Below, piece after piece: positions 19,456-48,553 of a stretch of DNA of 64,000 nucleotides. The stretch is from a virus (taxonomy: Duplodnaviria > Heunggongvirae > Uroviricota > Caudoviricetes). Under the pieces are notes generated by a model. The model had not been told where the DNA came from. It saw nothing but the letters and a program-made list of their open reading frames with translations, and did no database searches. Numbering within the stretch: position 1 is the stretch's first letter; every line of letters starts with the position of its first letter. Where the stretch lies: positions 19,467-83,466 of IMG/VR virus record IMGVR_UViG_3300010430_000005; one strand, written 5' to 3'. A program made the translations under genes and the position numbers.

Positions 19456-19503
19456 CGCCGTAGTGTGTCAATGTTAAAACCGTGTTACAAAAGGAGACGT
19501 AAC

Positions 19504-20646: not shown

Positions 20647-21459
20647 ATGGAAGTCAAATGGGCAGTAAGCACTGGAGTTTTTGATAGACCAGGCTTTCTT
20701 AAAATAACAGACGCTCTTGATAGAGCAGGCATAGAGTATTTTCAGAGTGAATATGATACAGTATCTCGAAAATACAAAGACATACCATATGGCGTAGATG
20801 AATGTGTCGTCATGTATGGTCCTATCCAATTCGTTAAAAATAATGACAAAGGATTTTTGCCTGGTCCTTTTGGGTACGAAAACCCAAACACAACTCAATA
20901 TATGTCCAAATTGCCTATAGAATGGTTCTTTAATAGTGAATCTATCTATCTTCCGTTTGGGCAAATAATGTCTAAGATCGACTTTATAAATAAGGTGTAC
21001 GGTGACAGACTATTCATAAGACCAGATTCGGGGTTCAAAAGTTTCACCGGATTTAACGTCAACATCGAAGATTTAGAATTTGAATTATCCTCTAGGGCAC
21101 AGACAGAACCTGTTTTTTATGACGAATTGTGTCTTGTAGCTAAAGAAAAACAAATACTTGGAGAATATAGATTTGTCATTTGCGACAAAAAAGTCGTAAC
21201 TGGCTCCCAATATAGATATGACGGAGTGTTGGATATTCGTATTGACGTAAACAGCGATGCTCTGAAAATGGCAGAGAAAGTCGCTCAACACCCTTGGCAG
21301 ATGGATACATGTTACGTTGTAGATATATTTCTGGACGCTCTAGGTGCGCCTAGCATTGGAGAATTCAATAGTTTTTCGAGTAGTGGGCTTTATAGTTGCG
21401 ACGTGGATAAGATAGTAAAAGAAGTAAGTGCTTGTGCACTAAAAGAATGGGAATTTTGA
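20647..21459 (+). CDS. hypothetical protein, possibly ATP-grasp fold
   Basis: The C-terminal SIGEFNSFSSSG resembles the ATP-grasp E-x-N motif. Weak evidence. Confidence 0.35.
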   Translation: MEVKWAVSTGVFDRPGFLKITDALDRAGIEYFQSEYDTVSRKYKDIPYGVDECVVMYGPIQFVKNNDKGFLPGPFGYENPNTTQYMSKLPIEWFFNSESIYLPFGQIMSKIDFINKVYGDRLFIRPDSGFKSFTGFNVNIEDLEFELSSRAQTEPVFYDELCLVAKEKQILGEYRFVICDKKVVTGSQYRYDGVLDIRIDVNSDALKMAEKVAQHPWQMDTCYVVDIFLDALGAPSIGEFNSFSSSGLYSCDVDKIVKEVSACALKEWEF

Positions 21460-23029: not shown

Positions 23030-23046
23030 ATTCTAAAGAGGTATTG

Positions 23047-25332
23047 ATGATAAACGTAATAAAAAGAGATGGTAGTAAAGAACCACTGGATCTAAACAAA
23101 ATACACAAGGTTGTTGGGTGGTCATGCGAAGGCATAACGGGAGTATCTGTTTCTCAGGTGGAATTAAAATCTCATATCCAATTCTATGACGGCATAACAA
23201 CAGAAGACATCCACGAAACACTTATTAGTTCGGCGTCGGAACTAATATCTGAAGACACACCTAATTACCAATACGTTGCGGCCAAATTGATAAATTTTGA
23301 TCTCAGGAAAAGAGCCTACGGAAAATATGAGCCAGATACGTTGAAAGAGATAGTTGAGCGGGGCGTGAAAGACGGTTTTTACAATCCGGATCTTTTAACC
23401 GAATATAACGATTCTGATTGGTCTTTTATGGAAGGTGTTATAAATCATGATCGTGACAATTACATCTCTTATGCTGGCATGGTGCAGTTCAAAACCAAAT
23501 ACCTAGTAAAGAATAAGATAAGTAACCATTATTACGAAACACCTCAAGTCGCTTATATGCTGATCGCGGCAAGCGGGTGTCTAGTAGAAGAAAAAGAAAG
23601 TCGTCTCAAAACAATAAAACAAGTGTATAACCATTTGTCTAAGTTTGACTTTACTCTACCTACACCGATCATGGCCGGTTTGCGTACTAAAGTAAAGCAG
23701 TTCTCTTCCTGCACTCTTATTGACTCGGGCGACTCTTTGGATTCTATCAATGCTGCCGCATCTGCCATAGTTAAATATGCTGCGAACCGCGCCGGTATAG
23801 GTTTGAATATTGGACGCATTCGTGCTGTTGGTTCCCCCATAAGAAACGGAGAAGCAACTCATACGGGTATTGTGCCTTTCATCAAATATTTCAATTCTGC
23901 ATTGAAAAGCTGTAACCAAGGCGGTTTGAGAAATTCCAGCGGAACATTCTATTACCCTATGTGGCATTATGAATACGAAGATCTCATCGTCCTGAAAAAT
24001 AACAAAGGTACCGAAGATTCGAGAGTCCGTTCTGTAGACTATGGCGTGCAGCTAAATAGATTTTTGATACAGCGTCTCATTAACGGTGAGGACATAACTT
24101 TATTCTCACCTAGCGATGTGCCTGGACTATATGACGCTTTCTTCGCAGACCAAAAGAAGTTTGCTGAGCTTTATGTGAAATACGAAAAAGATAAATCCAT
24201 TAGGAAAAAGACAATCAGCGCGATGGATGCTTTTGGTCACTTGGCTCAAGAGCGAGTCGAAACGGGCAGAATTTATATACAGTTCGTAGACAATACTAAC
24301 GAGCAAGGCATGTTAGGTGAAGACAACCTTGTTGTCATGTCGAACTTGTGTGCGGAAGTTGTACAAACAACAAAACCCATGGAGTCTGTGTTTGATTCTG
24401 ACGGTATGGTATCTCTATGTACATTAGCCGCATTCAATATGGGCAATATTAAACAGCCTTCCGACTTTGAGAAGCTTTCTAGAGTTATGGTGCGGTTCAT
24501 TGATAACGTGTTAACTTATCAGACGTACCTTTTACCTGCTTCGGAGAACTCGACTCGTATGTTCCGGAATATAGGTATAGGCATGTCTAACTTGGCTTAT
24601 TTCTTGGCTAAAAACGGATACAAATATACCGACTCTGAAGCACCGGCGTTTATGCACCCTTATATGGAAGCTATGGGATACTACTCTATAAAAGCATCTG
24701 CAGAGTTAGCAAAAGAGCGAGGTTCCTTTGAAGCTTTCGATACGACAAAGTGGGCTAAAGGTATTCTTCCGATAGATACTTACCGTGATGCTGTCGACGA
24801 AATCGCGGCGGCGGAATATGAACTGGACTGGGAAGAATTGAGGCTTTTGACTAAAGAAGGTATGAGAAACGCTACAGTTCTTAGCTTCATGCCCGTGGAA
24901 ACCTCGAGTCAGTTGGTTAATGCCACGAATGGTGTAGAACCACCGCGTGGGTTGATCTCTGTTAAAGGATCAAAAGACGGTGTTATGAAGCAAGTAGTTC
25001 CCGAAATACACAGACTGAAGAACAAGTATGATCTGCTTTGGGATCAGGAAAGCCCAAGAGGATATTTGAATATTATGGCTGTAATGCAAAAATTTGTAGA
25101 CCAGTCCATATCGGTAAATACTTCTTATAATCCAGAGTTTTATGAAGACGGTAATATACCACTAACAGACATATTGGGAGACATAATTTATGCTTGTAAG
25201 ATGGGCCTAAAGACACTATATTACAACAACACATTTGATATGAGTGGCGAAGTCGAATTTAAAGACGAAGAACAAGCGCCACTAACCGAAGAAGAAGAAT
25301 CTGAAGAATATTGCGATTCTTGTGTACTTTAA
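23047..25332 (+). CDS. nrdA: ribonucleotide reductase class Ia large subunit
   Basis: ATP-cone at the N-terminus. Contains NLCAEV, PMESVFDSDG and MPVETSSQ. Acidic C-terminus with CDSC. Confidence 0.9.
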   Translation: MINVIKRDGSKEPLDLNKIHKVVGWSCEGITGVSVSQVELKSHIQFYDGITTEDIHETLISSASELISEDTPNYQYVAAKLINFDLRKRAYGKYEPDTLKEIVERGVKDGFYNPDLLTEYNDSDWSFMEGVINHDRDNYISYAGMVQFKTKYLVKNKISNHYYETPQVAYMLIAASGCLVEEKESRLKTIKQVYNHLSKFDFTLPTPIMAGLRTKVKQFSSCTLIDSGDSLDSINAAASAIVKYAANRAGIGLNIGRIRAVGSPIRNGEATHTGIVPFIKYFNSALKSCNQGGLRNSSGTFYYPMWHYEYEDLIVLKNNKGTEDSRVRSVDYGVQLNRFLIQRLINGEDITLFSPSDVPGLYDAFFADQKKFAELYVKYEKDKSIRKKTISAMDAFGHLAQERVETGRIYIQFVDNTNEQGMLGEDNLVVMSNLCAEVVQTTKPMESVFDSDGMVSLCTLAAFNMGNIKQPSDFEKLSRVMVRFIDNVLTYQTYLLPASENSTRMFRNIGIGMSNLAYFLAKNGYKYTDSEAPAFMHPYMEAMGYYSIKASAELAKERGSFEAFDTTKWAKGILPIDTYRDAVDEIAAAEYELDWEELRLLTKEGMRNATVLSFMPVETSSQLVNATNGVEPPRGLISVKGSKDGVMKQVVPEIHRLKNKYDLLWDQESPRGYLNIMAVMQKFVDQSISVNTSYNPEFYEDGNIPLTDILGDIIYACKMGLKTLYYNNTFDMSGEVEFKDEEQAPLTEEEESEEYCDSCVL

Positions 25333-25347
25333 CGTGAAAGGATTATT

Positions 25348-26433
25348 ATGGCTTTAAATGTAGATTATAAAGGACGGAAGATGTTCCTCGATGGTTCTGT
25401 GGATATTGCACGGTACGATCAGATACAATACCCGACCTTGGATAGGATTGTTAAACAACAGCGAGGATTCTTTTGGGTCCCCGAAGAAATCAACGATATT
25501 AACAAAGATAAGGTTGATTTCAGGAAACTAAACGAGCACGAACAGCACATATTCATTTCGAACCTACTAAGGCAGACCCTACTAGATAGTATTCAGGGTA
25601 GAGCCCCTTCCGAAGTCTTTAGTCCGATTACTTCTGTACCCGAAGCGGAGATTTGGACTCAGACATGGGCATTTAGCGAAACAATTCATTCTTATTCGTA
25701 TACGTATATCATACGGAATGTGTTTTCGAATCCCGACGAAGTGTTTGGCCGTATGCCCGAAATTCAAGAGATTGTCGATTGTTCTGTAGACGTTTCTAAG
25801 TATTACAACGAACTGGACGATTTTAATAAGCTAGTTTCTTTGTACGGTTACGAAGACGGTCGGACATTGCGAAAACATAAAGAACTTCTATGGAAATGTC
25901 TCATGTCTGTTAACATCTTAGAAGGCGTGCGCTTTTATGTTTCGTTTGCGTGTTCTTGGAATTTTGCCGAACGTAAATTGATGGAAGGCAATGCGAAAAT
26001 CATCAAGTTGATCGCAAGGGATGAGAATTTGCACCTAGCGTCTACGCAATATATGCTAAGAGAACTTGTCCGTACAGATCCCGAATTTGCAGAGATCGCC
26101 AAAGAAACTGAACAAGAGTGCATAGAGTTGTTTAACGCTGCTATAGATCAAGAAAAAGATTGGGCTAAGTACCTATTCAAAGATGGCTCTATGGTTGGTC
26201 TAAATGAAAACATACTGTGCGAATATGTTGATTATATAGCAAAACAGCGTATGAAAGTTGTGGGTCTACCTTCAGACATAGAGATAACACAGAACCCGCT
26301 ACCTTGGACCTTGAAATGGATCGGCGGCAAGGAAATGCAACCGGCAGCACAAGAAACCAACATCACATCTTATCGAATAGGCGGGCTGAAAAGCGATGTT
26401 AGTAAAAACTCGTTCAAAGGTTTTGAACTTTGA
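25348..26433 (+). CDS. nrdB: ribonucleotide reductase small subunit
   Basis: Di-iron ligand helices: ETIHSYSYTYI, ILEGVRFYVSFA and ARDENLHLA. Confidence 0.9.
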   Translation: MALNVDYKGRKMFLDGSVDIARYDQIQYPTLDRIVKQQRGFFWVPEEINDINKDKVDFRKLNEHEQHIFISNLLRQTLLDSIQGRAPSEVFSPITSVPEAEIWTQTWAFSETIHSYSYTYIIRNVFSNPDEVFGRMPEIQEIVDCSVDVSKYYNELDDFNKLVSLYGYEDGRTLRKHKELLWKCLMSVNILEGVRFYVSFACSWNFAERKLMEGNAKIIKLIARDENLHLASTQYMLRELVRTDPEFAEIAKETEQECIELFNAAIDQEKDWAKYLFKDGSMVGLNENILCEYVDYIAKQRMKVVGLPSDIEITQNPLPWTLKWIGGKEMQPAAQETNITSYRIGGLKSDVSKNSFKGFEL

Positions 26434-26854: not shown

Positions 26855-29095
26855 ATGAAACACTTAGATGAATCTTTGGATGAAATATATCCAATACAAC
26901 GACAAGAATCCAAAATATCTCATATATTTGACCATTGGTCTTTTGATGTTGAGAATGGGCAAGAACACGCCGTTAGATTCGTTAAGGGCCAAAATGGACC
27001 AAAAACTTCTAGAATTGTCTTTGGGGTTAAAAGAGGCAAAAAGATTGTTTCGAAAATCGAAAGTGTGCCAAACATTAGGAAGTATTTAGCTACTGTTATG
27101 CGTGCGGTAGAGACAGCTTTAGAAAATCCGACAAAAAAGGTTAAGGGCAGGATAGATGGTTTTGAGGTCAACGTGCCGCAAAAAGCATTTGATATTCTTG
27201 GTGATAGGATGATACGCATCTTGAGTAAGAGGCTCAGGGCAAGATTTAATGTGGCGGATAAATACACCGAGATGAAAGAGGATGGTTTTTCTTGCATTTT
27301 TGTTTGGAAAAAATCCAAACAATTTTCGGCAGTATTTCAAGAGTTAGATAAATCGGACATTGATGTTATGACCGAATTAGGTGACGTTGCGGGCATCGCG
27401 TCTAAAAAACACACGGAACATATGACCGATACATCTTCGGATAGGAGTCCTCAAGATGCTATCTCTTCAGTATCTTCGACTGCTTCAGCAGATTCGGAAA
27501 TCGATTTCGAAACAAACACTAAACAAAAAAGCGAAACAGATGTTGTTATAGATAAGAAGTCTGTAGTTTATAGTATGGGCGGGAAAGATATACGTAAAAA
27601 ACTATCTCAACAGGAAATAGAAAACAAAGTCAAGCGTCTGGCGATTTTGTCTGGCATTACCTCTTTCTATCATAGCAAAGAAATTTTTACGGATGTGCCG
27701 GTGTACGGGCCCGACGACATATCGTCTCTTATAGCCTCGGGTGGCGAAATATATATGGATTTCCCTAAACTTATATATTCTTTGATGTATAAAATAAAAG
27801 GTGTCTACACTGATGATATAATGTGGGGAAGCGACTATGCGTATTTAAGTGATGCTATAAAAAAAGCTACAGGTAATTATATAGATGTTAAGAAAGATGT
27901 GCAAGACATAATCGAAAAGAAGTTGCCTTCAGATTATGTTGTGGAAATGGCTTTGAATGTAGACAATATAAACAAAACGTTTATTGACAGGTATGGTGTA
28001 TCTGCTACAGATATAGTTAATGCTATGAAAGAAATGGATCCTAAGGGGTATAAGCATAAAAATCTAGAATTGAATAGTTCATCTTTTGTTAGTGGCATAG
28101 AAGACACGAAACAGGCTATTTTAGACGCCCTAGCTTCATCTGATACGCTGGAGACATCTGAGATGTACAAATTTGAAGAATCGATTGACGGTAAGCGAAT
28201 GATTAGAGGCAAGAATTATACCTTCGAAGACGTTCCTGCTAATCATTATTTGCAATCTTTAATACGACAAGCAAAAGAATTACCGCCTGAAGAATACCTA
28301 GAGATACAAAAGGTATTGCCCGAACATCTAAAAGATTATGTTATTTCTGATGATCTCGAATATTTTGAGACAATGATGGTTTCCGGCTGGACTATTTCTG
28401 GCGGTAATGTTGTGCAGACATTGGCGCATAGATATGCTAGTGAGGTAGGAGTTAATGCAGAATTGGGCGAATTTTGGAACTCGTCGAGTGAGGATTTTTC
28501 AAAAGAAAACGTAAGCAAAGCATATGATATTATGGCCGATAAGATCGCTGGCAATTTCGAAAGTATCTACGGAAAAACACAATCTTTCTATAAGAATAAA
28601 ATGAATAAAAAGTACGAGACTGCCAAAATCAAGTTATATAGAGGAATCGGCCAGAAAGACGTAGGTACTTATACTCCTGGTTCTTTAGAGTCTTGGACAT
28701 CTGTAGTATCTACGGCTAAAAAATTCGCTAAAATGATGTCCGATGCTGATAATGAAGGTACAATACTTTATGCTGAAGTGCCTATACAGCACATATTTGG
28801 CTCTTACGAATCGTTTTATGAAACTTGGCCCAACGAACAAGATCTGAAAGGCAAAAAAGAGTTTATAGTTATGGGCGGCACTTTTGCTACGACTCCTTTA
28901 TACTTATATGATCCTAGCACAAAAGAGAAGGTGTCTACATTGAACTTTAAAGAATGGATTGAATTGAAAGAGTCTAAGGAAACAAAATCAATTAAAGTGG
29001 TAACACCTTCCGATGATGGTTTTGATCCTAATGATCCTAAAGCTGCTTTTGGTAACGATCCGAAAGAAGAAAAAATCGACAAGAGAGAAGAATAG
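26855..29095 (+). CDS. large (746 aa) protein with possible C-terminal ADP-ribosyltransferase (R-S-E, Alt-like) domain
   Basis: RBS acaggagacaccATG. The C-terminal region has LYRG (R), about 20 aa later ESWTSVVST (S-T-S), and about 45 aa later YETWPNEQDLKGKKEF (candidate Q/ExE ARTT loop). Late promoter upstream, as for T4 alt. Confidence 0.35.
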   Translation: MKHLDESLDEIYPIQRQESKISHIFDHWSFDVENGQEHAVRFVKGQNGPKTSRIVFGVKRGKKIVSKIESVPNIRKYLATVMRAVETALENPTKKVKGRIDGFEVNVPQKAFDILGDRMIRILSKRLRARFNVADKYTEMKEDGFSCIFVWKKSKQFSAVFQELDKSDIDVMTELGDVAGIASKKHTEHMTDTSSDRSPQDAISSVSSTASADSEIDFETNTKQKSETDVVIDKKSVVYSMGGKDIRKKLSQQEIENKVKRLAILSGITSFYHSKEIFTDVPVYGPDDISSLIASGGEIYMDFPKLIYSLMYKIKGVYTDDIMWGSDYAYLSDAIKKATGNYIDVKKDVQDIIEKKLPSDYVVEMALNVDNINKTFIDRYGVSATDIVNAMKEMDPKGYKHKNLELNSSSFVSGIEDTKQAILDALASSDTLETSEMYKFEESIDGKRMIRGKNYTFEDVPANHYLQSLIRQAKELPPEEYLEIQKVLPEHLKDYVISDDLEYFETMMVSGWTISGGNVVQTLAHRYASEVGVNAELGEFWNSSSEDFSKENVSKAYDIMADKIAGNFESIYGKTQSFYKNKMNKKYETAKIKLYRGIGQKDVGTYTPGSLESWTSVVSTAKKFAKMMSDADNEGTILYAEVPIQHIFGSYESFYETWPNEQDLKGKKEFIVMGGTFATTPLYLYDPSTKEKVSTLNFKEWIELKESKETKSIKVVTPSDDGFDPNDPKAAFGNDPKEEKIDKREE

Positions 29096-29152: not shown

Positions 29153-29776
29153 ATGATTGTCATGCAGGGTAAATTGCCGCGTAAAGTTAGTGTAGCATGT
29201 AGCGGGGGTGTCGATAGTATGGCCGTCGTCGACTTCCTAAAACGAAATCATAATGTGACTTTGTTGTTTTTTCATCACGGCACAGAAACCAGCGAAAAAG
29301 CATACCAATTCCTTAAATCGTATTCTTCAGCTAACGGCGTAGAATTAATATCAGAACGCATTAAAGATACTTCTGTTCCTAAAGATCAGAGTCAAGAGGA
29401 ATATTGGCGTAATTGTCGATATAAGTTTTTCCTTAACCGCGACGAGCCCGTTGTAACATGCCACCACCTTGACGATTGTGTCGAGACTTGGGTTTGGAGC
29501 TCTTTGAATGGAAACGGCAAGATCATTCCTTACAATAACCGTAACGTTATTAGGCCCTTTAGGGTCAATAAAAAGTCTGAATTTGTTTCTTGGGCCAAAC
29601 GAAATGATGTGCCGTGGGTAGAGGACGAGAGCAACAAAGATACAAAATATACTCGAAATTTTATTAGACACGAAATGATGCCAAAAGTTTTGACTGTTAA
29701 TCCCGGCATCCACAAAACTATTGCTAGAAAGGTGAGAAAAGATTATGGGAAATTATGTAGTAAAACCTCCTGTTGA
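29153..29776 (+). CDS. PP-loop (SGGxDS) ATP-pyrophosphatase family protein (TilS/QueC-like N-type ATPase)
   Basis: VACSGGVDSMAVVDFL PP-loop motif near the N-terminus. About 207 aa. Confidence 0.55.
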   Translation: MIVMQGKLPRKVSVACSGGVDSMAVVDFLKRNHNVTLLFFHHGTETSEKAYQFLKSYSSANGVELISERIKDTSVPKDQSQEEYWRNCRYKFFLNRDEPVVTCHHLDDCVETWVWSSLNGNGKIIPYNNRNVIRPFRVNKKSEFVSWAKRNDVPWVEDESNKDTKYTRNFIRHEMMPKVLTVNPGIHKTIARKVRKDYGKLCSKTSC

Positions 29777-31552: not shown

Positions 31553-32464
31553 ATGAAAAGTGTGGCTAAAATCTTTGGTGGACTACTGCTCGCTTCGACT
31601 CTATCGGGTTGTATTGGTGAGAAAGTAGAAATTCCGCCTGCAAGTGTTGGCATGGTACTGGGAGCAAATGGTTATCAGGGCGATATCATTCCTCCGAGCC
31701 GATTCCGTCTCCCAGCATGTTTTACTCAGTGTGATAAACTAGTTGTGATTGAAGCTGGCGATATTGGCATGAAAGAGGACATGAAAGTGTTGATGCCAAA
31801 AGATAACCTTGACCTCGGTGTAGATGTGCGATTCACTCTGGCGATGTCTCAAGATAAAGCCCAAATTCTATCAGTTTTTGATCGGGTAGTGCCTGTTCGT
31901 CTGGAAAGCGGGAACTATGGCGCAACCCTACAAATGATCTATACCACATATGGTCAAGCTGTTGTTCGTAATGTTGTTCGCTCAACATTGTCAGAATACT
32001 CCATTGCAGAAATTGCCAATAACCAGAATGCCGTTTCGGAGCGACTTCGCCAGGAAGTGTCGAAGGCACTTGAAAAGACCCCGCTTGAAATCAAACAGTT
32101 TGGCCTTGCCAATATCGTTTACCCCAGCGTAGTGACAGAAGCTCGCGAAGCCACTATGTCGAAGAAAATTGAGGTCGAACGTGCAGAAGCCGAAGCTCAG
32201 GTCGATATTCGTAAAGCACAGGCTCGCCTAGAAGTGACCCGCGCAGAACGTGAGGCTGACCTGCTAGCGGCACAAACTATTGCAGAACAGAATCGTATCT
32301 TGGCTGATGGCGTAACCCCCGAAGTACTTCGTTACATGGAACTGGAAGTGCTGAAGAAAATGGCAGAGAACCAAAACACCATTTTCTTCCCTGTAGATAT
32401 GATGGGGAGCGAAGCCGGACGAACTGCTCTTACTAACCGTGTTCTTAAAGAAGGTGCTAAATAA
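31553..32464 (+). CDS. SPFH/band-7 (stomatin/prohibitin-like) lipoprotein
   Basis: Lipobox LSGC in LLLASTLSGCIG. SPFH-like core with an Ala/Glu/Arg-rich coiled coil (ERAEAEAQVDIRKAQARLEVTRAEREADLLAAQ). Confidence 0.6.
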   Translation: MKSVAKIFGGLLLASTLSGCIGEKVEIPPASVGMVLGANGYQGDIIPPSRFRLPACFTQCDKLVVIEAGDIGMKEDMKVLMPKDNLDLGVDVRFTLAMSQDKAQILSVFDRVVPVRLESGNYGATLQMIYTTYGQAVVRNVVRSTLSEYSIAEIANNQNAVSERLRQEVSKALEKTPLEIKQFGLANIVYPSVVTEAREATMSKKIEVERAEAEAQVDIRKAQARLEVTRAEREADLLAAQTIAEQNRILADGVTPEVLRYMELEVLKKMAENQNTIFFPVDMMGSEAGRTALTNRVLKEGAK

Positions 32465-34336: not shown

Positions 34337-34810
34337 ATGACTAAACTTTTCAATGACTGCGAATTCAACGAGTTTGGTGGCGATCTTATTTCGATGGCTC
34401 TTGTTGCAGAAAATGGGCAAGAGTTTTATGAGGTGCTGAATCTAGAGAATAATTACAATTATGGCCCTTGGGTGTCGAAAAACGTCGTCCCGATTTTGAA
34501 CAAAGACCCCATCATTAAAGATTTGTTCACTAATAGACTTTGGCACTTCCTGAATCAATGGAAAGAAGTCCATATTATCGCCGATTGGCCTGACGACATT
34601 AAATATTTCTGCATGTCTCTTGTTACAGGCCCAGGAAGAGCAATCAACACACCTCCGAAAATGACTATGCAAATAGATAGGGAGTTATCGGCAGAAACAA
34701 GTGCTATTCCGCATAACGCTCTTGAGGATGCTAGGGCAATTAAACGAAGCTGGGAGCGCCGTGAGAAAGAGATGATCGGTTACGGGATAAAAGGTGTTGA
34801 CTTTGTGTAG
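34337..34810 (+). CDS. DEDD-family (DnaQ-like) 3'-5' exonuclease
   Basis: The N-terminal acidic motif region (DCEFNEFGGDLISMA) and C-terminal PHNALEDARA (Exo III H-x4-D) fit the DEDDh fold. Confidence 0.5.
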   Translation: MTKLFNDCEFNEFGGDLISMALVAENGQEFYEVLNLENNYNYGPWVSKNVVPILNKDPIIKDLFTNRLWHFLNQWKEVHIIADWPDDIKYFCMSLVTGPGRAINTPPKMTMQIDRELSAETSAIPHNALEDARAIKRSWERREKEMIGYGIKGVDFV

Positions 34811-35959: not shown

Positions 35960-36429
35960 AGGATTCGTTTGGATATGTTATAAAGAGCACATTAAAAGGA
36001 GATTTAGACATGACTCGTGACGAATTCCAAAAAATAGTAGATGAAATAACTGGTGGGAAATATTACTCGCCAGAACGTAAGCGAAAAAACACAGGTATAC
36101 AAGGTCGTAAAGGTTATTACGGACCTACTATTGAACTAAAAGTAGAATGGATGACTGGTGGTGCTTGGGGTGGAAACTGTTGGGATGATTCGGACCCAAG
36201 TAGTTATTGCCCAGAACCTGACAAAGAACCAGAGTTAGAACACATAGATCAAATTTTGGAAAAGGTTGCCCCTACGATTGGGTTTATTCAATACAAGACT
36301 TTGATGCAAAAAGTTGAGTATGATACCAGAACTGAACTTGAATACTATGGAAACCATACCAGTTACGGTATCAAGAAAATTCTAATAGAAGATATTTGGG
36401 AATTTTTGCAGGAAAAGGGTTATGTATAG
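35956..36429 (+). CDS. hypothetical protein
   Basis: 157-aa ORF with ATGA overlap. Confidence 0.4.
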   Translation: MKDSFGYVIKSTLKGDLDMTRDEFQKIVDEITGGKYYSPERKRKNTGIQGRKGYYGPTIELKVEWMTGGAWGGNCWDDSDPSSYCPEPDKEPELEHIDQILEKVAPTIGFIQYKTLMQKVEYDTRTELEYYGNHTSYGIKKILIEDIWEFLQEKGYV

Positions 36430-36799
36430 TGACATAATATTGTGGGTTGGCCTACCTGGTTCGGGCAAAACCTACAATGCCCAAAAATACTGTGATATTG
36501 TCATTGATGATATCACTGACCTTTCGCAGTTACCATCCTCAGAAGAAATTAAAGGAAAGCGATTGGGTATCGCAGATGTAAACTTCTGCGACAAGAAAAT
36601 TCTTCACAAAGCAATATCAAAAATCTTGGAAATTTATCCAAGCGCAATGATTGACATATATTATTTTGAAAATGACGTCGACAAATGTCGTGCTAATGTG
36701 TTATATCGTAATGATGGTAGAAATGTAGAAGGAACCATTCTAAGATTTGAAAAAATATACGAACCGCCTAAGTGGGCGGCTAAAATATGGAGTGAATAA
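36422..36799 (+). CDS. P-loop kinase (polynucleotide 5'-kinase-like, stand-alone)
   Basis: Walker A VGLPGSGKTY at the N-terminus. 125 aa. Sits directly upstream of an RNA ligase. Confidence 0.45.
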   Translation: MYSDIILWVGLPGSGKTYNAQKYCDIVIDDITDLSQLPSSEEIKGKRLGIADVNFCDKKILHKAISKILEIYPSAMIDIYYFENDVDKCRANVLYRNDGRNVEGTILRFEKIYEPPKWAAKIWSE

Positions 36800-36800
36800 A

Positions 36801-37853
36801 ATGCTACTAACACGCGACGAATTCAGAAATAAAGTTTTTGAACGAGATAACCATCGTTGCGTGATATGTGGCGCAACTGAAAGTGATACTGTCAAACTTG
36901 ATGCACATCACATCATTGAACGCCGTTTGTGGTTGGATGGTGGCTATTATGTTGATAATGGGGCAACTCTTTGCGATAAAGGCGAAGATGGTTGTCACAT
37001 GAAAACAGAAATCACAACATTGTCAGTTGACGATATTCGCATTGCTGCCAACATTCAAAAACCTATCATACCAGAAGATATGTATGCAGACCACGTTTAT
37101 GACAAATGGGGTAATATCATATTGGGCAATGGAACCAGAACTAAGGGTCCGTTGTTTGGAGACGAATCTGTTCAAAAGGTTTTGTCGAAACATCCAAACT
37201 TTGAAAGTTTGTTTGTTGACTATGTGAAATATCCGAGAACTTATCACCTTCCATGGTCATTGGGTATTACGGATGATGATCGTATTATGCGTGATTTGTC
37301 TAATTTCGAAGGTAAGCGTGTTATTGTTACACGTAAAATGGATGGCGAAAATTTCACAGGATATAATGACTATAGTCATGCACGTTCTGTGGATGGACGC
37401 CACCATTATACCAGAGATTGGGCAAAGAATTTTTGGATGCAGCGTTCTTATGAATTGCCAAAAGGATGGCGTGTATGCGCTGAAAATCTCTATGCAGTCC
37501 ATTCAATTCGGTATGATGATCTTGACAGTTATCTTATGGGGTTTTCGATTTGGAATGATAAAAACGAATGCCTGTCTTGGGATGAAACAGTAGAATGGTT
37601 TCAACTTCTAGACATTCCTAGCGTTCCAGTCTTGTATGACGGTATCTTTGATGAAGAAAAGATCAAATCTCTTTATGATGTAAAGGAAGATTATGATAAT
37701 CATGAAGGGTATGTTATGCGAACTGCGGATGGGTTCAACTATGGAAATTTTAAAAATTGTGTTGCTAAATTCGTAAGACCAAATCACGTGCAATCGCAAA
37801 AGCACTGGTTTTATGGGAGAAGCGACCATGATGTAAATGGGATGAAAGAATGA
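36801..37853 (+). CDS. HNH-motif domain fused to Rnl2-like ATP-dependent RNA ligase
   Basis: RBS ggagtgaataaaATG. N-terminal HNH motif CVICG...LDAHHIIERRLW...NGATLC...CH. Nucleotidyltransferase motif I VTRKMDGENFTGY (compare Rnl2 KIHGTNF). Confidence 0.5.
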   Translation: MLLTRDEFRNKVFERDNHRCVICGATESDTVKLDAHHIIERRLWLDGGYYVDNGATLCDKGEDGCHMKTEITTLSVDDIRIAANIQKPIIPEDMYADHVYDKWGNIILGNGTRTKGPLFGDESVQKVLSKHPNFESLFVDYVKYPRTYHLPWSLGITDDDRIMRDLSNFEGKRVIVTRKMDGENFTGYNDYSHARSVDGRHHYTRDWAKNFWMQRSYELPKGWRVCAENLYAVHSIRYDDLDSYLMGFSIWNDKNECLSWDETVEWFQLLDIPSVPVLYDGIFDEEKIKSLYDVKEDYDNHEGYVMRTADGFNYGNFKNCVAKFVRPNHVQSQKHWFYGRSDHDVNGMKE

Positions 37854-38122
37854 GTATACATTTCAATTTCGACATAACAAATCCGTTTGTAAAAAAACAC
37901 TGCGGCAAAACCATTTTTTTCTTTGAACCAAAAGTATCTAAAAACAAGGCAATCTGCTTCCAGTTCGATGGATTTGATTGGAAGCAGATATTTGAAATTG
38001 GTTTTTGGTGGAGAGATAAAACTATGGGTCATTGGGGTATGAGTATAGAATTCGGACTTTTAGGGTTTTGGTTCAACTTAGACTTTTATGATATCAGACA
38101 TGTAGAGGAAGATGATGAATAG
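37850..38122 (+). CDS. hypothetical protein
   Basis: 90-aa ORF with ATGA overlap. Confidence 0.35.
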   Translation: MSIHFNFDITNPFVKKHCGKTIFFFEPKVSKNKAICFQFDGFDWKQIFEIGFWWRDKTMGHWGMSIEFGLLGFWFNLDFYDIRHVEEDDE

Positions 38123-38627
38123 AAAATATCTTGTATTTTTGGACATTGACGGTGTTTTTACATCGTCAAGAGTCCATTATGCACATAATGCAGAATATGG
38201 TATGTGGCATAGGTTTGATCCTGTTGCGGTCGATTTTTTGAATCGTATCCATGACACTTATCCTGTTGAATTTGTTCTAATGTCAACATGGAAAAATAAT
38301 ATAAAATATGATCATAAAATGATCGAACATTGGGTTCGTTCTGCATTTGCTAATAGTGGGTTTCGTGGAATGATTGCCAAACCATGGAAGGCTGATCCGG
38401 ACGATTTTGCGGTAATGAAGCGTTGGGATAGGGCACATGAAGTCAAAGATTATCTAGAAAACTTCGGAGAAGATGTAAAAGACTTCATCTTGTTTGATGA
38501 TAACGCATATCGTTTCAAGGAAATTCTTGGTAAAGGTAGACTTGTTAGAACCGATCCAGACAATGGATTGCTACATAAACATATGCTAAATGCTATGTCT
38601 ATCATGGGAACTTGGGTGGAGAAATGA
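38112..38627 (+). CDS. HAD-superfamily phosphatase (DxDG motif; Pnk-phosphatase-like)
   Basis: N-terminal LVFLDIDGVFTS matches HAD motif I DxDx(T/V). Motif IV-like FDDNAYR. Confidence 0.5.
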   Translation: MMNRKYLVFLDIDGVFTSSRVHYAHNAEYGMWHRFDPVAVDFLNRIHDTYPVEFVLMSTWKNNIKYDHKMIEHWVRSAFANSGFRGMIAKPWKADPDDFAVMKRWDRAHEVKDYLENFGEDVKDFILFDDNAYRFKEILGKGRLVRTDPDNGLLHKHMLNAMSIMGTWVEK

Positions 38628-38718: not shown

Positions 38719-39018
38719 ATGAAAAAGTTCTTGACAGCAGTTGCTATTTGTGTTACTCTGCCAACAATCGCACTAACAGAAACAGTTTATTACCCACAAG
38801 AATCTTGTGCAGAAATTGTTTCTCAAGAATATTCTACTGGTGGCGGTAATACGTCTTGGCAATATCTGGAAATCCTGTGTAAAGACAAAGATGGTAAATA
38901 TACTGGTTTTGTCGCTAGTTGGGGTTCTGTTGCAGGGTTTCTTGGCGCTGGTCGTTGGGATATGGTCGATCGTTTCGATTATGTTCCGTACAAAGGAAAA
39001 ACTCTGAAAGTAGAGTAA
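38719..39018 (+). CDS. small secreted protein
   Basis: RBS aaaaggagaaaaataATG. N-terminal signal peptide KKFLTAVAICVTLPTIALT. Confidence 0.45.
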   Translation: MKKFLTAVAICVTLPTIALTETVYYPQESCAEIVSQEYSTGGGNTSWQYLEILCKDKDGKYTGFVASWGSVAGFLGAGRWDMVDRFDYVPYKGKTLKVE

Positions 39019-39025
39019 AAAGTTC

Positions 39026-39054
39026 TTGACAAGCACATATACATGTAGTATAGT
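39026..39054 (+). promoter_or_regulatory. sigma70 consensus promoter TTGACA-17-TATAGT driving the tRNA-like RNA
   Basis: -35 at 39026-39031 and -10 at 39049-39054. Predicted TSS around 39061, 7 nt before the acceptor-like stem. Confidence 0.6.
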
Positions 39055-39067
39055 GCTTAAATAGTTT

Positions 39068-39187
39068 CCCGCTGTGGTGTAACGGTTAGCACACGTGCAC
39101 AAAGTCAATCCTGCAAAGGATTGTTACAGCAACAAAATTGCATATCATTGGAAGATCGTGGTCTAGGTTCGATTCCTAGCGGCGGGA
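39068..39187 (+). ncRNA. tRNA-like non-coding RNA, ~120 nt, non-canonical (candidate Y RNA, or intron/insert-containing tRNA)
   Basis: Acceptor-like stem CCCGCTG/CGGCGGG (one G-U pair). D-arm GTGT-AACGGTTAGC-ACAC. Canonical T-arm CTAGG-TTCGATT-CCTAG. Discriminator A with no encoded CCA. About 67 nt lie between the D- and T-arms instead of about 22-40, containing the hairpin CAATCC-TGCAAA-GGATTG, so no standard anticodon arm could be drawn by hand. Confidence 0.5.
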
Positions 39188-39261: not shown

Positions 39262-40686
39262 ATGAACACTTTTTCTAACGCAGTTGCTAATATCAAATCA
39301 AAAGAAATCTCACGCACCGAAAACGGTATGAAAGCTTTTGCTACTTCCGATTCTAAAGTTCTTGACCTATTTGGTAAGATCGGTTCTGGTCGCGGTCGTG
39401 ATATGTCTCGCGAATTTATGGCAGCACTTGGTGAAGATCAAGAACTTGCGATTCGTGTTCTCCTATGGGCACGTGATGTTCGTGGTGGTGCGGGTGAACG
39501 CGAAACTTTCCGTTCGCTACTAAAGGCGCTAGAAAACGGCAATCCGACACTTGCTGGTAAAATCATGCACCTAATCCCGGTTCTGGGTCGTTGGGATGAT
39601 CTGTTCGTGTATGAGGATGCTATCAACCGTAAAGCAGCACTTCGCATGTATGCAGATGCTCTTACGGACGGAAATGGTCTAGCCGCAAAATGGGCACCGC
39701 GTGAAAAGTCAACCAAGAAAGAACGTGCAGCAATGCTACGCAAATTCATGGGTCTTTCACCTAAGGAATATCGTAAACTCCTAGTCTCGAATACGAATGT
39801 TGTGGAGACTCAAATGTGCGCGAAGGACTGGGGAGGTATCGACTTTTCGAAAGTTCCTTCTCTAGCGTCTGCACGTTATCAAAAGGCATTTGGTCGTAAT
39901 GCGAGCGAGCAATATGCAGCATACATTCGTGAACTCCAAAAGCCTCAGGCAGAGCGCAATCCGAAAGTTAAAATTAATGCTGGTGCAGTATACCCATATG
40001 ATATTGTGAAGTCTCTATCAAAAGGTAATGCTGCTGTTGCGGATGCACAATTCGAAGCACTCCCAAACTATGTAGGTGATTCTAAAATCCTACCAATGGT
40101 TGATGTTTCGGGTTCTATGTATACTCCACTTGCTGGAAATACCAATGCACTTGAAGTTGCTATCTCACTAGGTCTGTATCTTTCTGACCGCACCAGTTCT
40201 GATTTTAAGGACATGTTCCTTACTTTCTCTGGTGAGTCAAAGATCGAAACCCTAAAAGGTAGTCTGTCACAGAAGTATAACCAACTTCGTCGTGCGGAAT
40301 GGGGAATGAACACTAACCTACACTCTGCGTTTGAGGAAATTCTTCGAGTTGCAAAGGACGGCAATGTCTCGCAAGAGAACATGCCAGACACTGTTCTTAT
40401 CCTTAGTGATATGCAGTTTGATCGTTGCGTTCGTCACGATGACAATGCTCTTGGCATGATTAAACGCAAATATGCAGAAGCGGGATACACTATGCCTTCT
40501 GTTGTATTCTGGAACCTAACTGCACGTGCTGATAACACACCAGTTAAAACTAACGACAAAGGCGTTGCCCTTGTTTCGGGTTTTAGTCCAGCGATCATGG
40601 CAACGGTTCTTGGTGCGGATCCTACGGAATTTACACCATATGCAATGATGCTAAACACTATCATGAGCGACCGTTACAATTTTTAA
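39262..40686 (+). CDS. rsr: Ro60-like protein (TROVE domain + C-terminal vWA/MIDAS domain)
   Basis: RBS aaaggagaatataagATG. N-terminal TROVE-like region (LFGKIGSGRGRD...IRVLLWARDVRGGAGER...LIPVLGRWDDL). vWA MIDAS motif MVDVSGSM with a downstream Ser/Thr/Asp series. Same architecture as bacterial Rsr. Confidence 0.65.
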   Translation: MNTFSNAVANIKSKEISRTENGMKAFATSDSKVLDLFGKIGSGRGRDMSREFMAALGEDQELAIRVLLWARDVRGGAGERETFRSLLKALENGNPTLAGKIMHLIPVLGRWDDLFVYEDAINRKAALRMYADALTDGNGLAAKWAPREKSTKKERAAMLRKFMGLSPKEYRKLLVSNTNVVETQMCAKDWGGIDFSKVPSLASARYQKAFGRNASEQYAAYIRELQKPQAERNPKVKINAGAVYPYDIVKSLSKGNAAVADAQFEALPNYVGDSKILPMVDVSGSMYTPLAGNTNALEVAISLGLYLSDRTSSDFKDMFLTFSGESKIETLKGSLSQKYNQLRRAEWGMNTNLHSAFEEILRVAKDGNVSQENMPDTVLILSDMQFDRCVRHDDNALGMIKRKYAEAGYTMPSVVFWNLTARADNTPVKTNDKGVALVSGFSPAIMATVLGADPTEFTPYAMMLNTIMSDRYNF

Positions 40687-47386: not shown

Positions 47387-48553
47387 ATGGGAAGTGAAAT
47401 TCATCGCAAATTGGCATCTATTCAGCGAATTGAAGAAGTTCGGGACATTGAAGGCGCAGATCTAATCCAAGCATACCGCGTTCTAGGTTGGTGGGTAGTT
47501 GATAAACGTGCTGCACATAAAGTAGGCGATCTCGTAGTATACATTTCTATTGATTCATGGGTGCCACATGAACTTGCACCTTTCTTGTCCAGTGGAAAAG
47601 AACCCCGCGAATACAACGGTGTGAAAGGTGAACGTCTTCGCACAATCAAACTTCGTGGACAGGTTTCGCAAGGATTGCTCATCAAAATTTCAGATATTCC
47701 TATTCACGTATTTGCCACTGAGAATGTAGATACTGGTGAAGTATATGCAATGGATGAAATCGTTTGGAATGAAGGAGACGATCTTACTCTTGATCTAAAC
47801 ATCCAAAAGTGGGAAGCACCAATTCCTGCACAACTTCAAGGACAAGCAAAAGGCACATTCCCTACCAGTCTTATTCCTAAGACTGACCAGGAACGCATTC
47901 AAAACTGCTTTGGTGCTATCCAAAAGCGTGATGGTCTTTTCTTGACTGAAAAGTTTTGGAATGAGGAATTGCAAGAAGTCCAAGAGCGTGATGTTGTTCT
48001 TCCAGAAGATTTCAAGAAGCCTACTTATGAGGTTACCATGAAACTTGATGGTAGCAGTATGACCATTTTCCGTTGGGAAGATGAACTTCGTGTTTGTAGT
48101 CGCAACATGGAACTGAAAATTAACGAAGAAAATGCCGATAACACTTTTGTTAAAATGGCATTGAAACTTGATGATTGCATCCCAGAAGGACTTGCTTTCC
48201 AAGGCGAACTTTGCGGCGAAGGAATCCAAGGCAACCGTGAAGGGTTTAAGGGGCATCACTTCTTTGTGTTTGATGTTTTCGACATAAAAGAACACAAATA
48301 CCTTTCGCCTTCCGAACGGCATGATATCATAAAAGACATGAATTCCATCATGGGATTGCCGTTCATCGACCATGTTCCTGTTCTTGGAACAGACTGGAAT
48401 GCACCTGAGAGTGTTGCAAAGGGTCTTGAACTGGCAGAAGGCCCAAGCATTAATCACAAGGTTCGCGAAGGTCTTGTGTGGAAATGCAATGAAGACCCGA
48501 GTTTCAGTTTCAAAACGATCAGCAACAAATTCTTGCTCAAAGGTGGGAATTGA
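47387..48553 (+). CDS. ATP-dependent RNA ligase-like nucleotidyltransferase (KxDG family)
   Basis: Motif I EVTMKLDGSSMTIFRW (compare Rnl1 KEDGS). N-terminal extension precedes the NTase domain. 388 aa. Confidence 0.45.
   Translation: MGSEIHRKLASIQRIEEVRDIEGADLIQAYRVLGWWVVDKRAAHKVGDLVVYISIDSWVPHELAPFLSSGKEPREYNGVKGERLRTIKLRGQVSQGLLIKISDIPIHVFATENVDTGEVYAMDEIVWNEGDDLTLDLNIQKWEAPIPAQLQGQAKGTFPTSLIPKTDQERIQNCFGAIQKRDGLFLTEKFWNEELQEVQERDVVLPEDFKKPTYEVTMKLDGSSMTIFRWEDELRVCSRNMELKINEENADNTFVKMALKLDDCIPEGLAFQGELCGEGIQGNREGFKGHHFFVFDVFDIKEHKYLSPSERHDIIKDMNSIMGLPFIDHVPVLGTDWNAPESVAKGLELAEGPSINHKVREGLVWKCNEDPSFSFKTISNKFLLKGGN

Follow-up and report, generated by a model that had tools for sequence, protein, structure and literature searches.

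An HNH domain fused to a minimal RNA ligase within a candidate RNA-repair gene cluster of a tailed virus

The HNH-Rnl gene and its two modules

The stretch of viral DNA analysed here (hereafter the window; 64,000 nucleotides (nt), positions 19,467 to 83,466 of the Caudoviricetes record IMGVR_UViG_3300010430_000005) carries on its plus strand, at 36801..37853, a single continuous open reading frame (ORF) of 350 amino acids (aa) plus stop codon, here termed HNH-Rnl, for which a first-pass annotation made from the sequence alone had proposed an HNH-motif domain fused to an RNA ligase. That fusion is real: the HNH domain occupies the first ~75 aa and the ligase domain is C-terminal, and the protein is confirmed as a genuine fusion of an intact HNH domain with a minimal RNA ligase. 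The ATG at 36801 is preceded by a GGAG Shine-Dalgarno sequence, with the stop codon of the upstream gene one base before it, and is assigned as the start because homologues align from residue 1-2; an upstream TTG at 36747 was considered as an alternative start and ruled out on the same grounds. The same 350-aa protein was called, identical, in two independent assemblies (one from ENA and one from JGI), and, since the architecture is in addition common to hundreds of homologues, the frameshift artefact against which the first-pass annotation had cautioned is excluded. An AlphaFold2 model, for which 55 homologues served as input, has a predicted local distance difference test score (pLDDT) of 91.4 and a predicted template modelling score (pTM) of 0.83, the latter value suggesting that the two domains are held in a fixed arrangement. 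When 15 kb surrounding the gene were compared with phage records by megablast, no close relative was returned, and a search of PDB sequences gave no match with the single protein and, with a profile, only non-significant matches to NgrRnl.

The HNH (beta-beta-alpha-metal) nuclease core spans aa 1-75 (36801..37025, plus strand). Every element of the HNH pattern that had been picked out by eye is present, as C20-V-I-C23-G, H36-H37-I38, N53, L57-C58 and C65-H66; C20, C23, C58 and C65 are the zinc ligands, and H36/H37 (nt 36906-36911), N53 (nt 36957-36959) and H66 (nt 36996-36998) the catalytic residues, with H37 as general base, N53 as structural Asn and H66 as metal ligand. A peculiarity of HNH-Rnl is a 4-residue insert, the last zinc ligand being spaced LC-x6-CH rather than the usual LC-x2-(C/H)H. 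The match to the Pfam HNH family PF01844 does not reach the cutoff of that family (18.8 bits vs 21.4, E=0.0018), a shortfall that is compensated by thirteen PHROG HNH families matching aa 5-75 (best E=5e-8) and by fold comparison of the model, in which the beta-beta-alpha fold around the metal site characteristic of the superfamily is present; the HNH region of the NCBIfam IscB model also matches (E=1.5e-6). The nearest fold relatives of the domain are McrA, TagI, IscB/Cas9 and Cap5. Pfam and PHROG profiles detected no DNA-binding domain in HNH-Rnl, Pfam gave no match to Hint or LAGLIDADG domains, hence the protein is not an intein, and the sole PADLOC match was a negligible one to DpdF (E=0.009), providing no defence-system assignment.

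Residues 76-138 (37026..37214, plus strand) form an extension, with no Pfam family match, that bears the motifs Y100-D-K-W-G-N105 and G..R.KG.LF.DESVQK, both invariant across two homologue alignments, and that is modelled with a pLDDT of 86-95 although it has scant regular secondary structure. The same extension is found together with the HNH core in stand-alone proteins of ~136 aa (N-modules) from Rhodobacterales (Leisingera, Epibacterium, Roseibium) and phages, and the N-module, comprising core and extension, is accordingly a separate unit in evolution.

The remainder of the protein, aa 139-340 (37215..37820, plus strand), is a minimal ATP-dependent RNA-ligase nucleotidyltransferase domain. 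Residues 173-325 score above the cutoff of the Pfam family RNA_ligase (PF09414, E=2e-26), the nucleotidyltransferase fold of the ligase superfamily is present, and ligase motif I, reported at the first pass, is found as K179-M-D-G-E-N (nt 37335-37352), accompanied by KYPRTxH (aa 143-149), HARS (aa 193-196), motif III (E228-N), motif IV (E302-G-Y-V-x-R307) and motif V (K323-F-V-R326). The earlier description of the domain as Rnl2-like holds for fold and motifs but not for family, as the signature C-terminal domain of Rnl2 is absent from both the model and the Pfam matches, HNH-Rnl stopping 24 residues past motif V. Nor was there a match to the N-terminal OB-like domain of Rnl5 (Pfam PHA02142 / TIGR02306), and NCBIfam and PADLOC provided no informative family for the ligase. 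Elsewhere, ligase domains of this type are found alone (~210 aa), with other N-terminal extensions, and within giant 'Swiss Army Knife' (SAK) RNA-repair proteins, an example of which (P0314, 2792 aa) combines the ligase with PolyA_pol (CCA-adding), HAD_SAK_1, 2H phosphoesterase and Topo IB domains. The ligase domain, too, is thus a unit in evolution, and HNH-Rnl is best described as a protein that belongs to both the HNH superfamily and PF09414, that is neither strictly Rnl2 nor strictly Rnl5, and that falls within the already recognised group of HNH-fused, SAK-type minimal ligases (PHROG 24030). A separate observation concerns HNH-ligase homologues of ~700 aa, three of which (P0242, P0249 and P0250) contain an intein (Hint plus LAGLIDADG homing endonuclease) directly after motif I, with two others (P0253 and P0254) also intein-bearing as judged by their length and match pattern.

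Distribution of the fusion and conservation of its two sites

The initial impression that an HNH-ligase fusion is unusual was not borne out. PHROG 24030 ('RNA ligase'), a widespread family, spans the fusion end to end (aa 2-340, E=1e-136), and the architecture is already in the literature: Iyer et al. 2021 (PMC7824862) describe some Rnl2-family ligases as bearing N-terminal HNH domains, with a citation of Burroughs & Aravind 2016. A literature search, including full text, for enzymes of the HNH-ligase type found no biochemical study and no report of purification. Full-length homologues identified by tblastn include proteins of Ralstonia phage RsoM2USA (60% identity), Salicola phage SCTP-2, eight Caulobacter jumbo phages, Acinetobacter phage ME3, several metagenomic megaphages and, at 29-32% identity, the archaeal halovirus HGTV-1, whose gp233 is recorded in RefSeq as gene 233 with the product 'RNA ligase' and the note 'HNH endonuclease domain'; the proteins of RsoM2USA, SCTP-2, CcrBL9/CcrSC and ME3 are 50-60% identical to HNH-Rnl. 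A profile search of a library of 1.84 billion representatives returned 4354 relatives, and among the best 146 newly returned clusters (50% identity), which were classified, both modules are present in 100 and the ligase alone in 23, ligase-only relatives being exemplified by those of Atu_ph07 and XacN1. The search for homologues with the same fusion, as recommended at the first pass, has in this way yielded at least 100 clusters, from jumbo phages, an archaeal virus and many bacteria. IMG/VR yielded 186 HNH-Rnl loci and GTDB genomes a further 67, the latter drawn from many phyla with complete chromosomes among them. HNH-Rnl is another member of a known architecture, neither unusual nor new, and among the RNA ligases of jumbo phages HNH-ligases are one of the commoner types, with many bacteria possessing them as well.

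Conservation was assessed over 292 distinct two-domain homologues, 35-100% identical to HNH-Rnl (median 58%), aligned to the family profile. Within the HNH module C20 is conserved in 100%, C23 in 97%, H36 in 99%, H37 in 98.6%, N53 in 99.7%, C58 in 99.3%, Cys or His at position 65 in 99% and H66 in 97.6% of sequences, compared with 96.9% for K179, 96.6% for E228, 96.9% for E302 and 97% for K323 of the ligase, values that put conservation of the HNH site on a par with that of the ligase site. The HNH residues, whose conservation had been put forward as a check on the domain, are kept across homologues down to 32-35% identity.

Either site has decayed separately in certain lineages. In a Saprospiraceae/Lewinellaceae clade of Bacteroidota (loci L146 and L148-L153) the motifs of the ligase domain are eroded (K179Q, D181G/N, E183Q/L, N184P and E302T, with motif V lost) and every HNH residue is intact; at L148, L149, L150 and L153 the next gene encodes an intact ligase of the minimal type (KLDGEN, EGVVCR, KYVR), and this ORF overlaps at its 3' end a gene for an HD plus P-loop kinase (HD-Pnk-type). 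The reverse situation, in which HNH residues are lost and the ligase is intact, is found in a few lineages (P0320, P0294 and P0293). The nuclease and ligase activities thus appear to be separable, with each normally under selection. Persistence of an intact HNH site beside RNA-repair genes, despite a dead ligase, suggests that the HNH module is kept for an activity of its own, and conservation and decay taken together argue against both a purely structural zinc finger and a selfish passenger.

Loci at which HNH-Rnl is apparently split were considered as candidates for a two-subunit enzyme, and turned out to be explained by TAG recoding in one case, by an in-frame TAA in another and by a frameshift with deletion in a third. 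The lone in-frame TAG in the first of these (L163, 4346..4348) occupies the very position of the conserved Gln125, an indication that this phage reads TAG as Gln; the lone in-frame TAA of the second (L161) is at a variable position, and the frameshifted copy in the third (L009) is without the KYPRTxH segment. Genes for CUA-anticodon (suppressor) tRNAs were observed near the HNH-ligase gene at two loci, L034 (9799..9871) and L042 (685..759).

Gene context in the window and in other genomes

HNH-Rnl is flanked in the window by genes with predicted roles in the healing of RNA ends. Immediately upstream, at 36422..36799 (plus strand), a P-loop protein of 125 aa with the Walker A motif GLPGSGKT is a candidate 5'-OH polynucleotide kinase; the single sequence gives only a weak AAA_33 match, and a profile constructed from 5 homologues retrieves the Rhizopus kinase 9d8a (E=3e-12), T4 Pnk (1ly1/1ltq, E=2e-8), the kinase of C. 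thermocellum Pnkp (E=5e-8), PSTK and mammalian PNKP. It would be an unusually small Pnk. Downstream, ORF90 (37850..38122, plus strand) overlaps both the stop codon of HNH-Rnl (ATGA) and the start of the gene that follows; it has no match in Pfam, PHROGs, NCBIfam or PADLOC, and is present in both of the other assemblies bearing HNH-Rnl. The gene that follows (38112..38627, plus strand) encodes a HAD_SAK_2 phosphatase of 171 aa with a DxDGV motif (Pfam PF18143, 'HAD domain in Swiss Army Knife RNA repair proteins', E=3e-19) that is predicted to heal 3'-phosphate ends. As an 8-kb scan found no strong promoter-like site between 35541 and 39026, the kinase, HNH-Rnl, ORF90 and HAD_SAK_2 genes are probably co-transcribed. 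The phage encodes a further RNA ligase ~10 kb downstream of HNH-Rnl (47387..48553, plus strand), which is of the Rnl5/DraRnl type, with an N-terminal OB fold and a nucleotidyltransferase domain; it matches the Pfam families PHA02142 (OB fold) and PF09414 and the NCBIfam family TIGR02306 (RNA_lig_DRB0094, E=1.5e-37), and shows no significant pairwise similarity to HNH-Rnl.

Between the phosphatase gene and a tRNA-like RNA lies an ORF of 99 aa (38719..39018, plus strand) with an N-terminal hydrophobic, signal-peptide-like segment (MKKFLTAVAICVTLPTIALT...) and no family match. The RNA is preceded by a sigma-70-like promoter, TTGACA-17-TATAGT (39026..39054, plus strand), that agrees with the consensus at 11/12 positions and has the joint top score in the 8-kb scan. 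At 120 nt (39068..39187, plus strand), this non-coding RNA scores 39.6 bits against the Rfam tRNA model (gathering cutoff 29, E=1e-5), and is missed both by ARAGORN and by an Rfam scan with default filters; it retains intact acceptor, D and T arms, whereas an insert of 61 nt stands in place of the anticodon arm. It does not match the YrlA model, and it keeps the normal strand order of a tRNA, unlike the layout of YrlA. The adjacent gene (39262..40686, plus strand) encodes a TROVE/Ro-like vWA protein (DUF2828, DUF7788 and VWA; PHROG 850, 'RNA-binding protein'), homologues of which in other phages often lie amid tRNA genes and sometimes beside tmRNA (18 scanned of loci L166-L236), with sub-threshold matches to YrlA (Y RNA-like) beside the gene at 3 of these 18 loci (L167, L202 and L170). 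The possibility that the RNA is an intron-containing tRNA spliced by the HNH and ligase modules was considered and is disfavoured, as the insert leaves no canonical anticodon stem-loop; more plausibly, it may be a Y-RNA-like partner of the TROVE-like protein.

At the loci found in other genomes, clustering of the neighbours of 80 phage and 67 genomic copies identified no conserved operon partner in more than ~12% of loci. Genes that recur at the 80 phage loci encode an ATP-dependent DNA ligase (10 loci), an R2K ATP-grasp protein (8), the small polynucleotide kinase (5-6), YqeY, annotated as a tRNA-binding-type domain (5), an NT5C-type HAD protein (5), an Rnl5-type ligase (4-6), a Thg1-like protein (4) and an AAA_28/KTI12-like P-loop protein (4), and at bacterial loci RtcB is adjacent in three and HD-Pnk in five. 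Stand-alone N-modules (L006-L008, from Leisingera sp. and related bacteria, and L164) adjoin YqeY and R2K-clade ATP-grasp genes, both of which recur beside the phage fusions. At 40 of the 80 phage loci (L014-L093) tRNA genes lie within 10 kb of HNH-Rnl; the 409 tRNAs in 1.36 Mb (~0.3 per kb) represent a ~3-4 fold enrichment over the roughly 20 tRNAs per jumbo phage genome given by Iyer et al. 2021 (PMC7824862), which is a literature average and not a matched control. Several HNH-Rnl genes form part of tRNA arrays, a tRNA gene being no more than 300 nt away. In two phage lineages an anti-defence gene is found directly downstream of the HNH-ligase gene, namely Gad2 (6973..7704 in L009) and Acb1 (5020..5547 in L161); the HNH-ligase copies beside them are interrupted, by a frameshift and deletion in L009 and by the in-frame TAA in L161.

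Other genes of the window, at a greater distance from HNH-Rnl, encode an R2K_3 protein (20647..21459), the large and small subunits of a class I ribonucleotide reductase (23044..26433), a protein of 746 aa with a weak DRAT-like ADP-ribosyltransferase match (26855..29095), a PP-loop (TilS-like) ATPase (29153..29776), an SPFH/Band 7 protein (31553..32464), an SPFH gene being found also near the HGTV-1 homologue, and a DEDD-type exonuclease (34337..34810; PHROG 'RNase H', with a weak Rv2179c-like exoribonuclease match).

Candidate roles and comparison with known systems

Cleavage of tRNA is a major anti-phage strategy (PrrC, RloC, PARIS and retron-associated nucleases), to which RNA repair by phages is a counter-measure, and the combination of kinase, phosphatase and ligase follows the heal-and-seal logic of T4 Pnkp/Rnl. 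We propose, with a probability of about 0.5, that HNH-Rnl, the product of a large (jumbo-type) phage, serves as a ligase in tRNA or RNA repair and is coupled to a metal-dependent nuclease whose probable task is the processing of broken ends. The nuclease-ligase enzyme that the first-pass annotation had listed among its options is accordingly the one best supported by context, its function being predicted from sequence, fold and gene order. There is good support for the ligase half as an ATP-dependent RNA ligase that would act through Lys179-AMP and, with the kinase and phosphatase, reseal host-cut RNA, most likely tRNA. Lys179 would take AMP from ATP and pass it to a 5'-phosphate end, which would then be sealed to a 3'-OH; the ligase would be co-expressed with the upstream 5'-OH kinase, to which it would be translationally coupled, and with the HAD_SAK_2 3'-phosphatase encoded two genes downstream, and together the three could repair tRNA or other RNA left with 2',3'-cyclic-phosphate/5'-OH ends by host ribonucleases, first healing the ends and then sealing them. 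Occurrence of the same ligase clade in giant SAK RNA-repair proteins is in keeping with this proposal. There is less support for the HNH module as an active nuclease in the same repair pathway, where it would most likely trim or clean the ends of the same broken or damaged RNA. HNH cleavage yields 5'-phosphate and 3'-OH products, and a role in end-cleaning or excision would be chemically coherent because these are the ends that the ligase joins; such a role would also explain how the nuclease came to be retained near repair genes where its own ligase domain has decayed.

Several considerations weigh against a nuclease that acts in RNA repair. All of the nearest fold relatives of the HNH domain cut DNA, such that a DNA substrate is the default expectation on fold alone. 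The gene neighbourhood is poorly conserved, with the small kinase found at 5-6 and HAD_SAK_2 at 2 of the 80 phage loci at the sensitivity of phmmer/jackhmmer, whilst the enrichment in tRNA genes rests on a literature average and their density is without a peak next to HNH-Rnl. Finally, the kinase and HAD phosphatase would already cover the classical healing of ends, making a trimming nuclease not obviously needed.

The DNA specificity of all its structural neighbours would fit an HNH module that serves as an offensive DNA endonuclease against the DNA of the host or of superinfecting phages, as proposed by Iyer et al. 2021 (PMC7824862), the two halves of the protein then doing unrelated jobs with the ligase alone repairing RNA. 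We consider this, the main rival reading, rather unlikely, since the module is without an SRA, AP2 or helix-turn-helix DNA-recognition domain, PADLOC identified no restriction-like or defence-system context, a free DNase would endanger the phage's own DNA with no partner immunity or modification gene found adjacent, and the persistent coupling to RNA repair across distant lineages, including the dead-ligase clade beside an active ligase and HD-Pnk, would be left unexplained. Unlikely, too, is the zinc-finger adaptor envisaged at the first pass, i.e. a non-catalytic HNH domain that binds nucleic acid or senses nicks and that replaces the C-terminal domain of Rnl2 or the OB domain of Rnl5 in enabling ligation step 2. 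A structural role would constrain the zinc ligands and not H37, N53 and H66, yet the catalytic His, Asn and His are 98-100% conserved and not the Cys ligands alone; moreover the N-module also lives without any ligase, and many ligases do without the N-module (23 ligase-only among the 146 representatives). In favour of such an adaptor, the minimal ligase domain has no other accessory domain, the domain order (N-terminal accessory, then nucleotidyltransferase domain) is that of Rnl5, and the pTM of 0.83 points to two domains that are fixed relative to each other. A partner domain may also be required if the ligase-like protein beside Runella HD-Pnk, which is reported by Shuman's group (PMC6097658) to be self-adenylylating but to seal no tested 3'-OH/5'-PO4 substrate, belongs to this family, in which case the HNH module may explain the inactivity of a related minimal ligase in vitro.

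Constancy of the architecture in more than 100 clusters, and at 80 viral and about 55 genomic loci, with the same boundaries shared by bacteria and by an archaeal virus at 32% identity and with no DNA-targeting modules, is difficult to reconcile with a selfish homing endonuclease fused in frame, the remaining suggestion of the first-pass annotation. Phages often carry HNH homing endonucleases, some relatives consist of the ligase alone (Atu_ph07, XacN1), and the N-module and ligase occur as separate ORFs on some contigs; nevertheless, the true mobile elements here are the LAGLIDADG inteins after motif I, the apparent splits are not real and the ORF is identical in independent assemblies, and either such an insertion or an assembly or frameshift artefact joining two genes is highly improbable and already largely refuted. 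A more far-reaching possibility, which we judge quite unlikely, is that HNH-Rnl acts as a single-chain excise-and-reseal RNA-repair enzyme, whose HNH module would remove damaged, toxin-modified or mis-extended tRNA nucleotides to leave 5'-phosphate and 3'-OH ends, and whose ligase would rejoin these directly. We know of no excise-and-reseal RNA enzyme that has been characterised, and, if true, this would amount to a protein-only RNA excision-repair (or RNA-editing-like) pathway of phages directed against tRNA-targeting host defences. With respect to the preferred reading of a repair ligase with an end-processing nuclease, the comparative data sharpen the question of what role a fully conserved nuclease site plays when joined to a sealing enzyme, as the nuclease appears to be selected independently of the ligase, embedded in heal-and-seal clusters and located in tRNA-rich regions. 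A small single-chain nuclease-ligase could also be of interest to biotechnology.

Among known systems, the HNH-fused 'Rnl2-family' ligases of jumbo phages (PHROG 24030) have the same full-length two-domain layout as HNH-Rnl, and nothing essential differs. T4 Rnl2 (PDB 1S68, 2HVQ) and trypanosome REL1 possess an all-helical C-terminal domain that is absent from HNH-Rnl, which has an N-terminal HNH domain instead, and their sequence similarity to it is undetectable with phmmer; in work from the Shuman laboratory the C-terminal domain of Rnl2 was reportedly needed for nick sensing and step 2. In Rnl5 (Naegleria gruberi NgrRnl, 5COT; Deinococcus DraRnl) the N-terminal position is taken by an OB-like fold, whereas in HNH-Rnl it is taken by the HNH nuclease. 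McrA-type and IscB-Cas9-type HNH domains share with HNH-Rnl the beta-beta-alpha-metal fold, the Cys4/Cys3His zinc site, the His general base, the Asn and the His metal ligand, from which HNH-Rnl departs in being without a DNA-targeting domain or guide RNA and in having its own 60-aa extension with the invariant DKWG motif.

Similarities extend to the surrounding genes. The bacterial rsr-yrlBA-rtcBA operon (Ro60 orthologue, Y RNAs and RtcB), an RNA-repair operon named in PMC7790460, resembles the window in that an RNA ligase, a TROVE/vWA-type protein and a tRNA-like RNA are likewise clustered in the latter; the window differs in that its ligase is an ATP-dependent lysine-adenylate enzyme and not RtcB, and its protein is of the DUF2828/DUF7788 type and not a canonical Ro60. 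With T4 Pnkp plus Rnl1/Rnl2, bacterial Pnkp-Hen1 and Runella HD-Pnk/ligase/Tpt1 the window has in common that genes for a kinase, a phosphatase and an ATP-dependent ligase are clustered, and the Bacteroidota homologues of HNH-Rnl that lie directly upstream of a minimal ligase overlapping an HD plus P-loop kinase gene reproduce the arrangement described for Runella. To our knowledge, no characterised heal-and-seal system includes a nuclease domain. In the window, by comparison with those systems, the kinase and phosphatase are separate small proteins rather than a single Pnkp, and the ligase is fused to an HNH nuclease.

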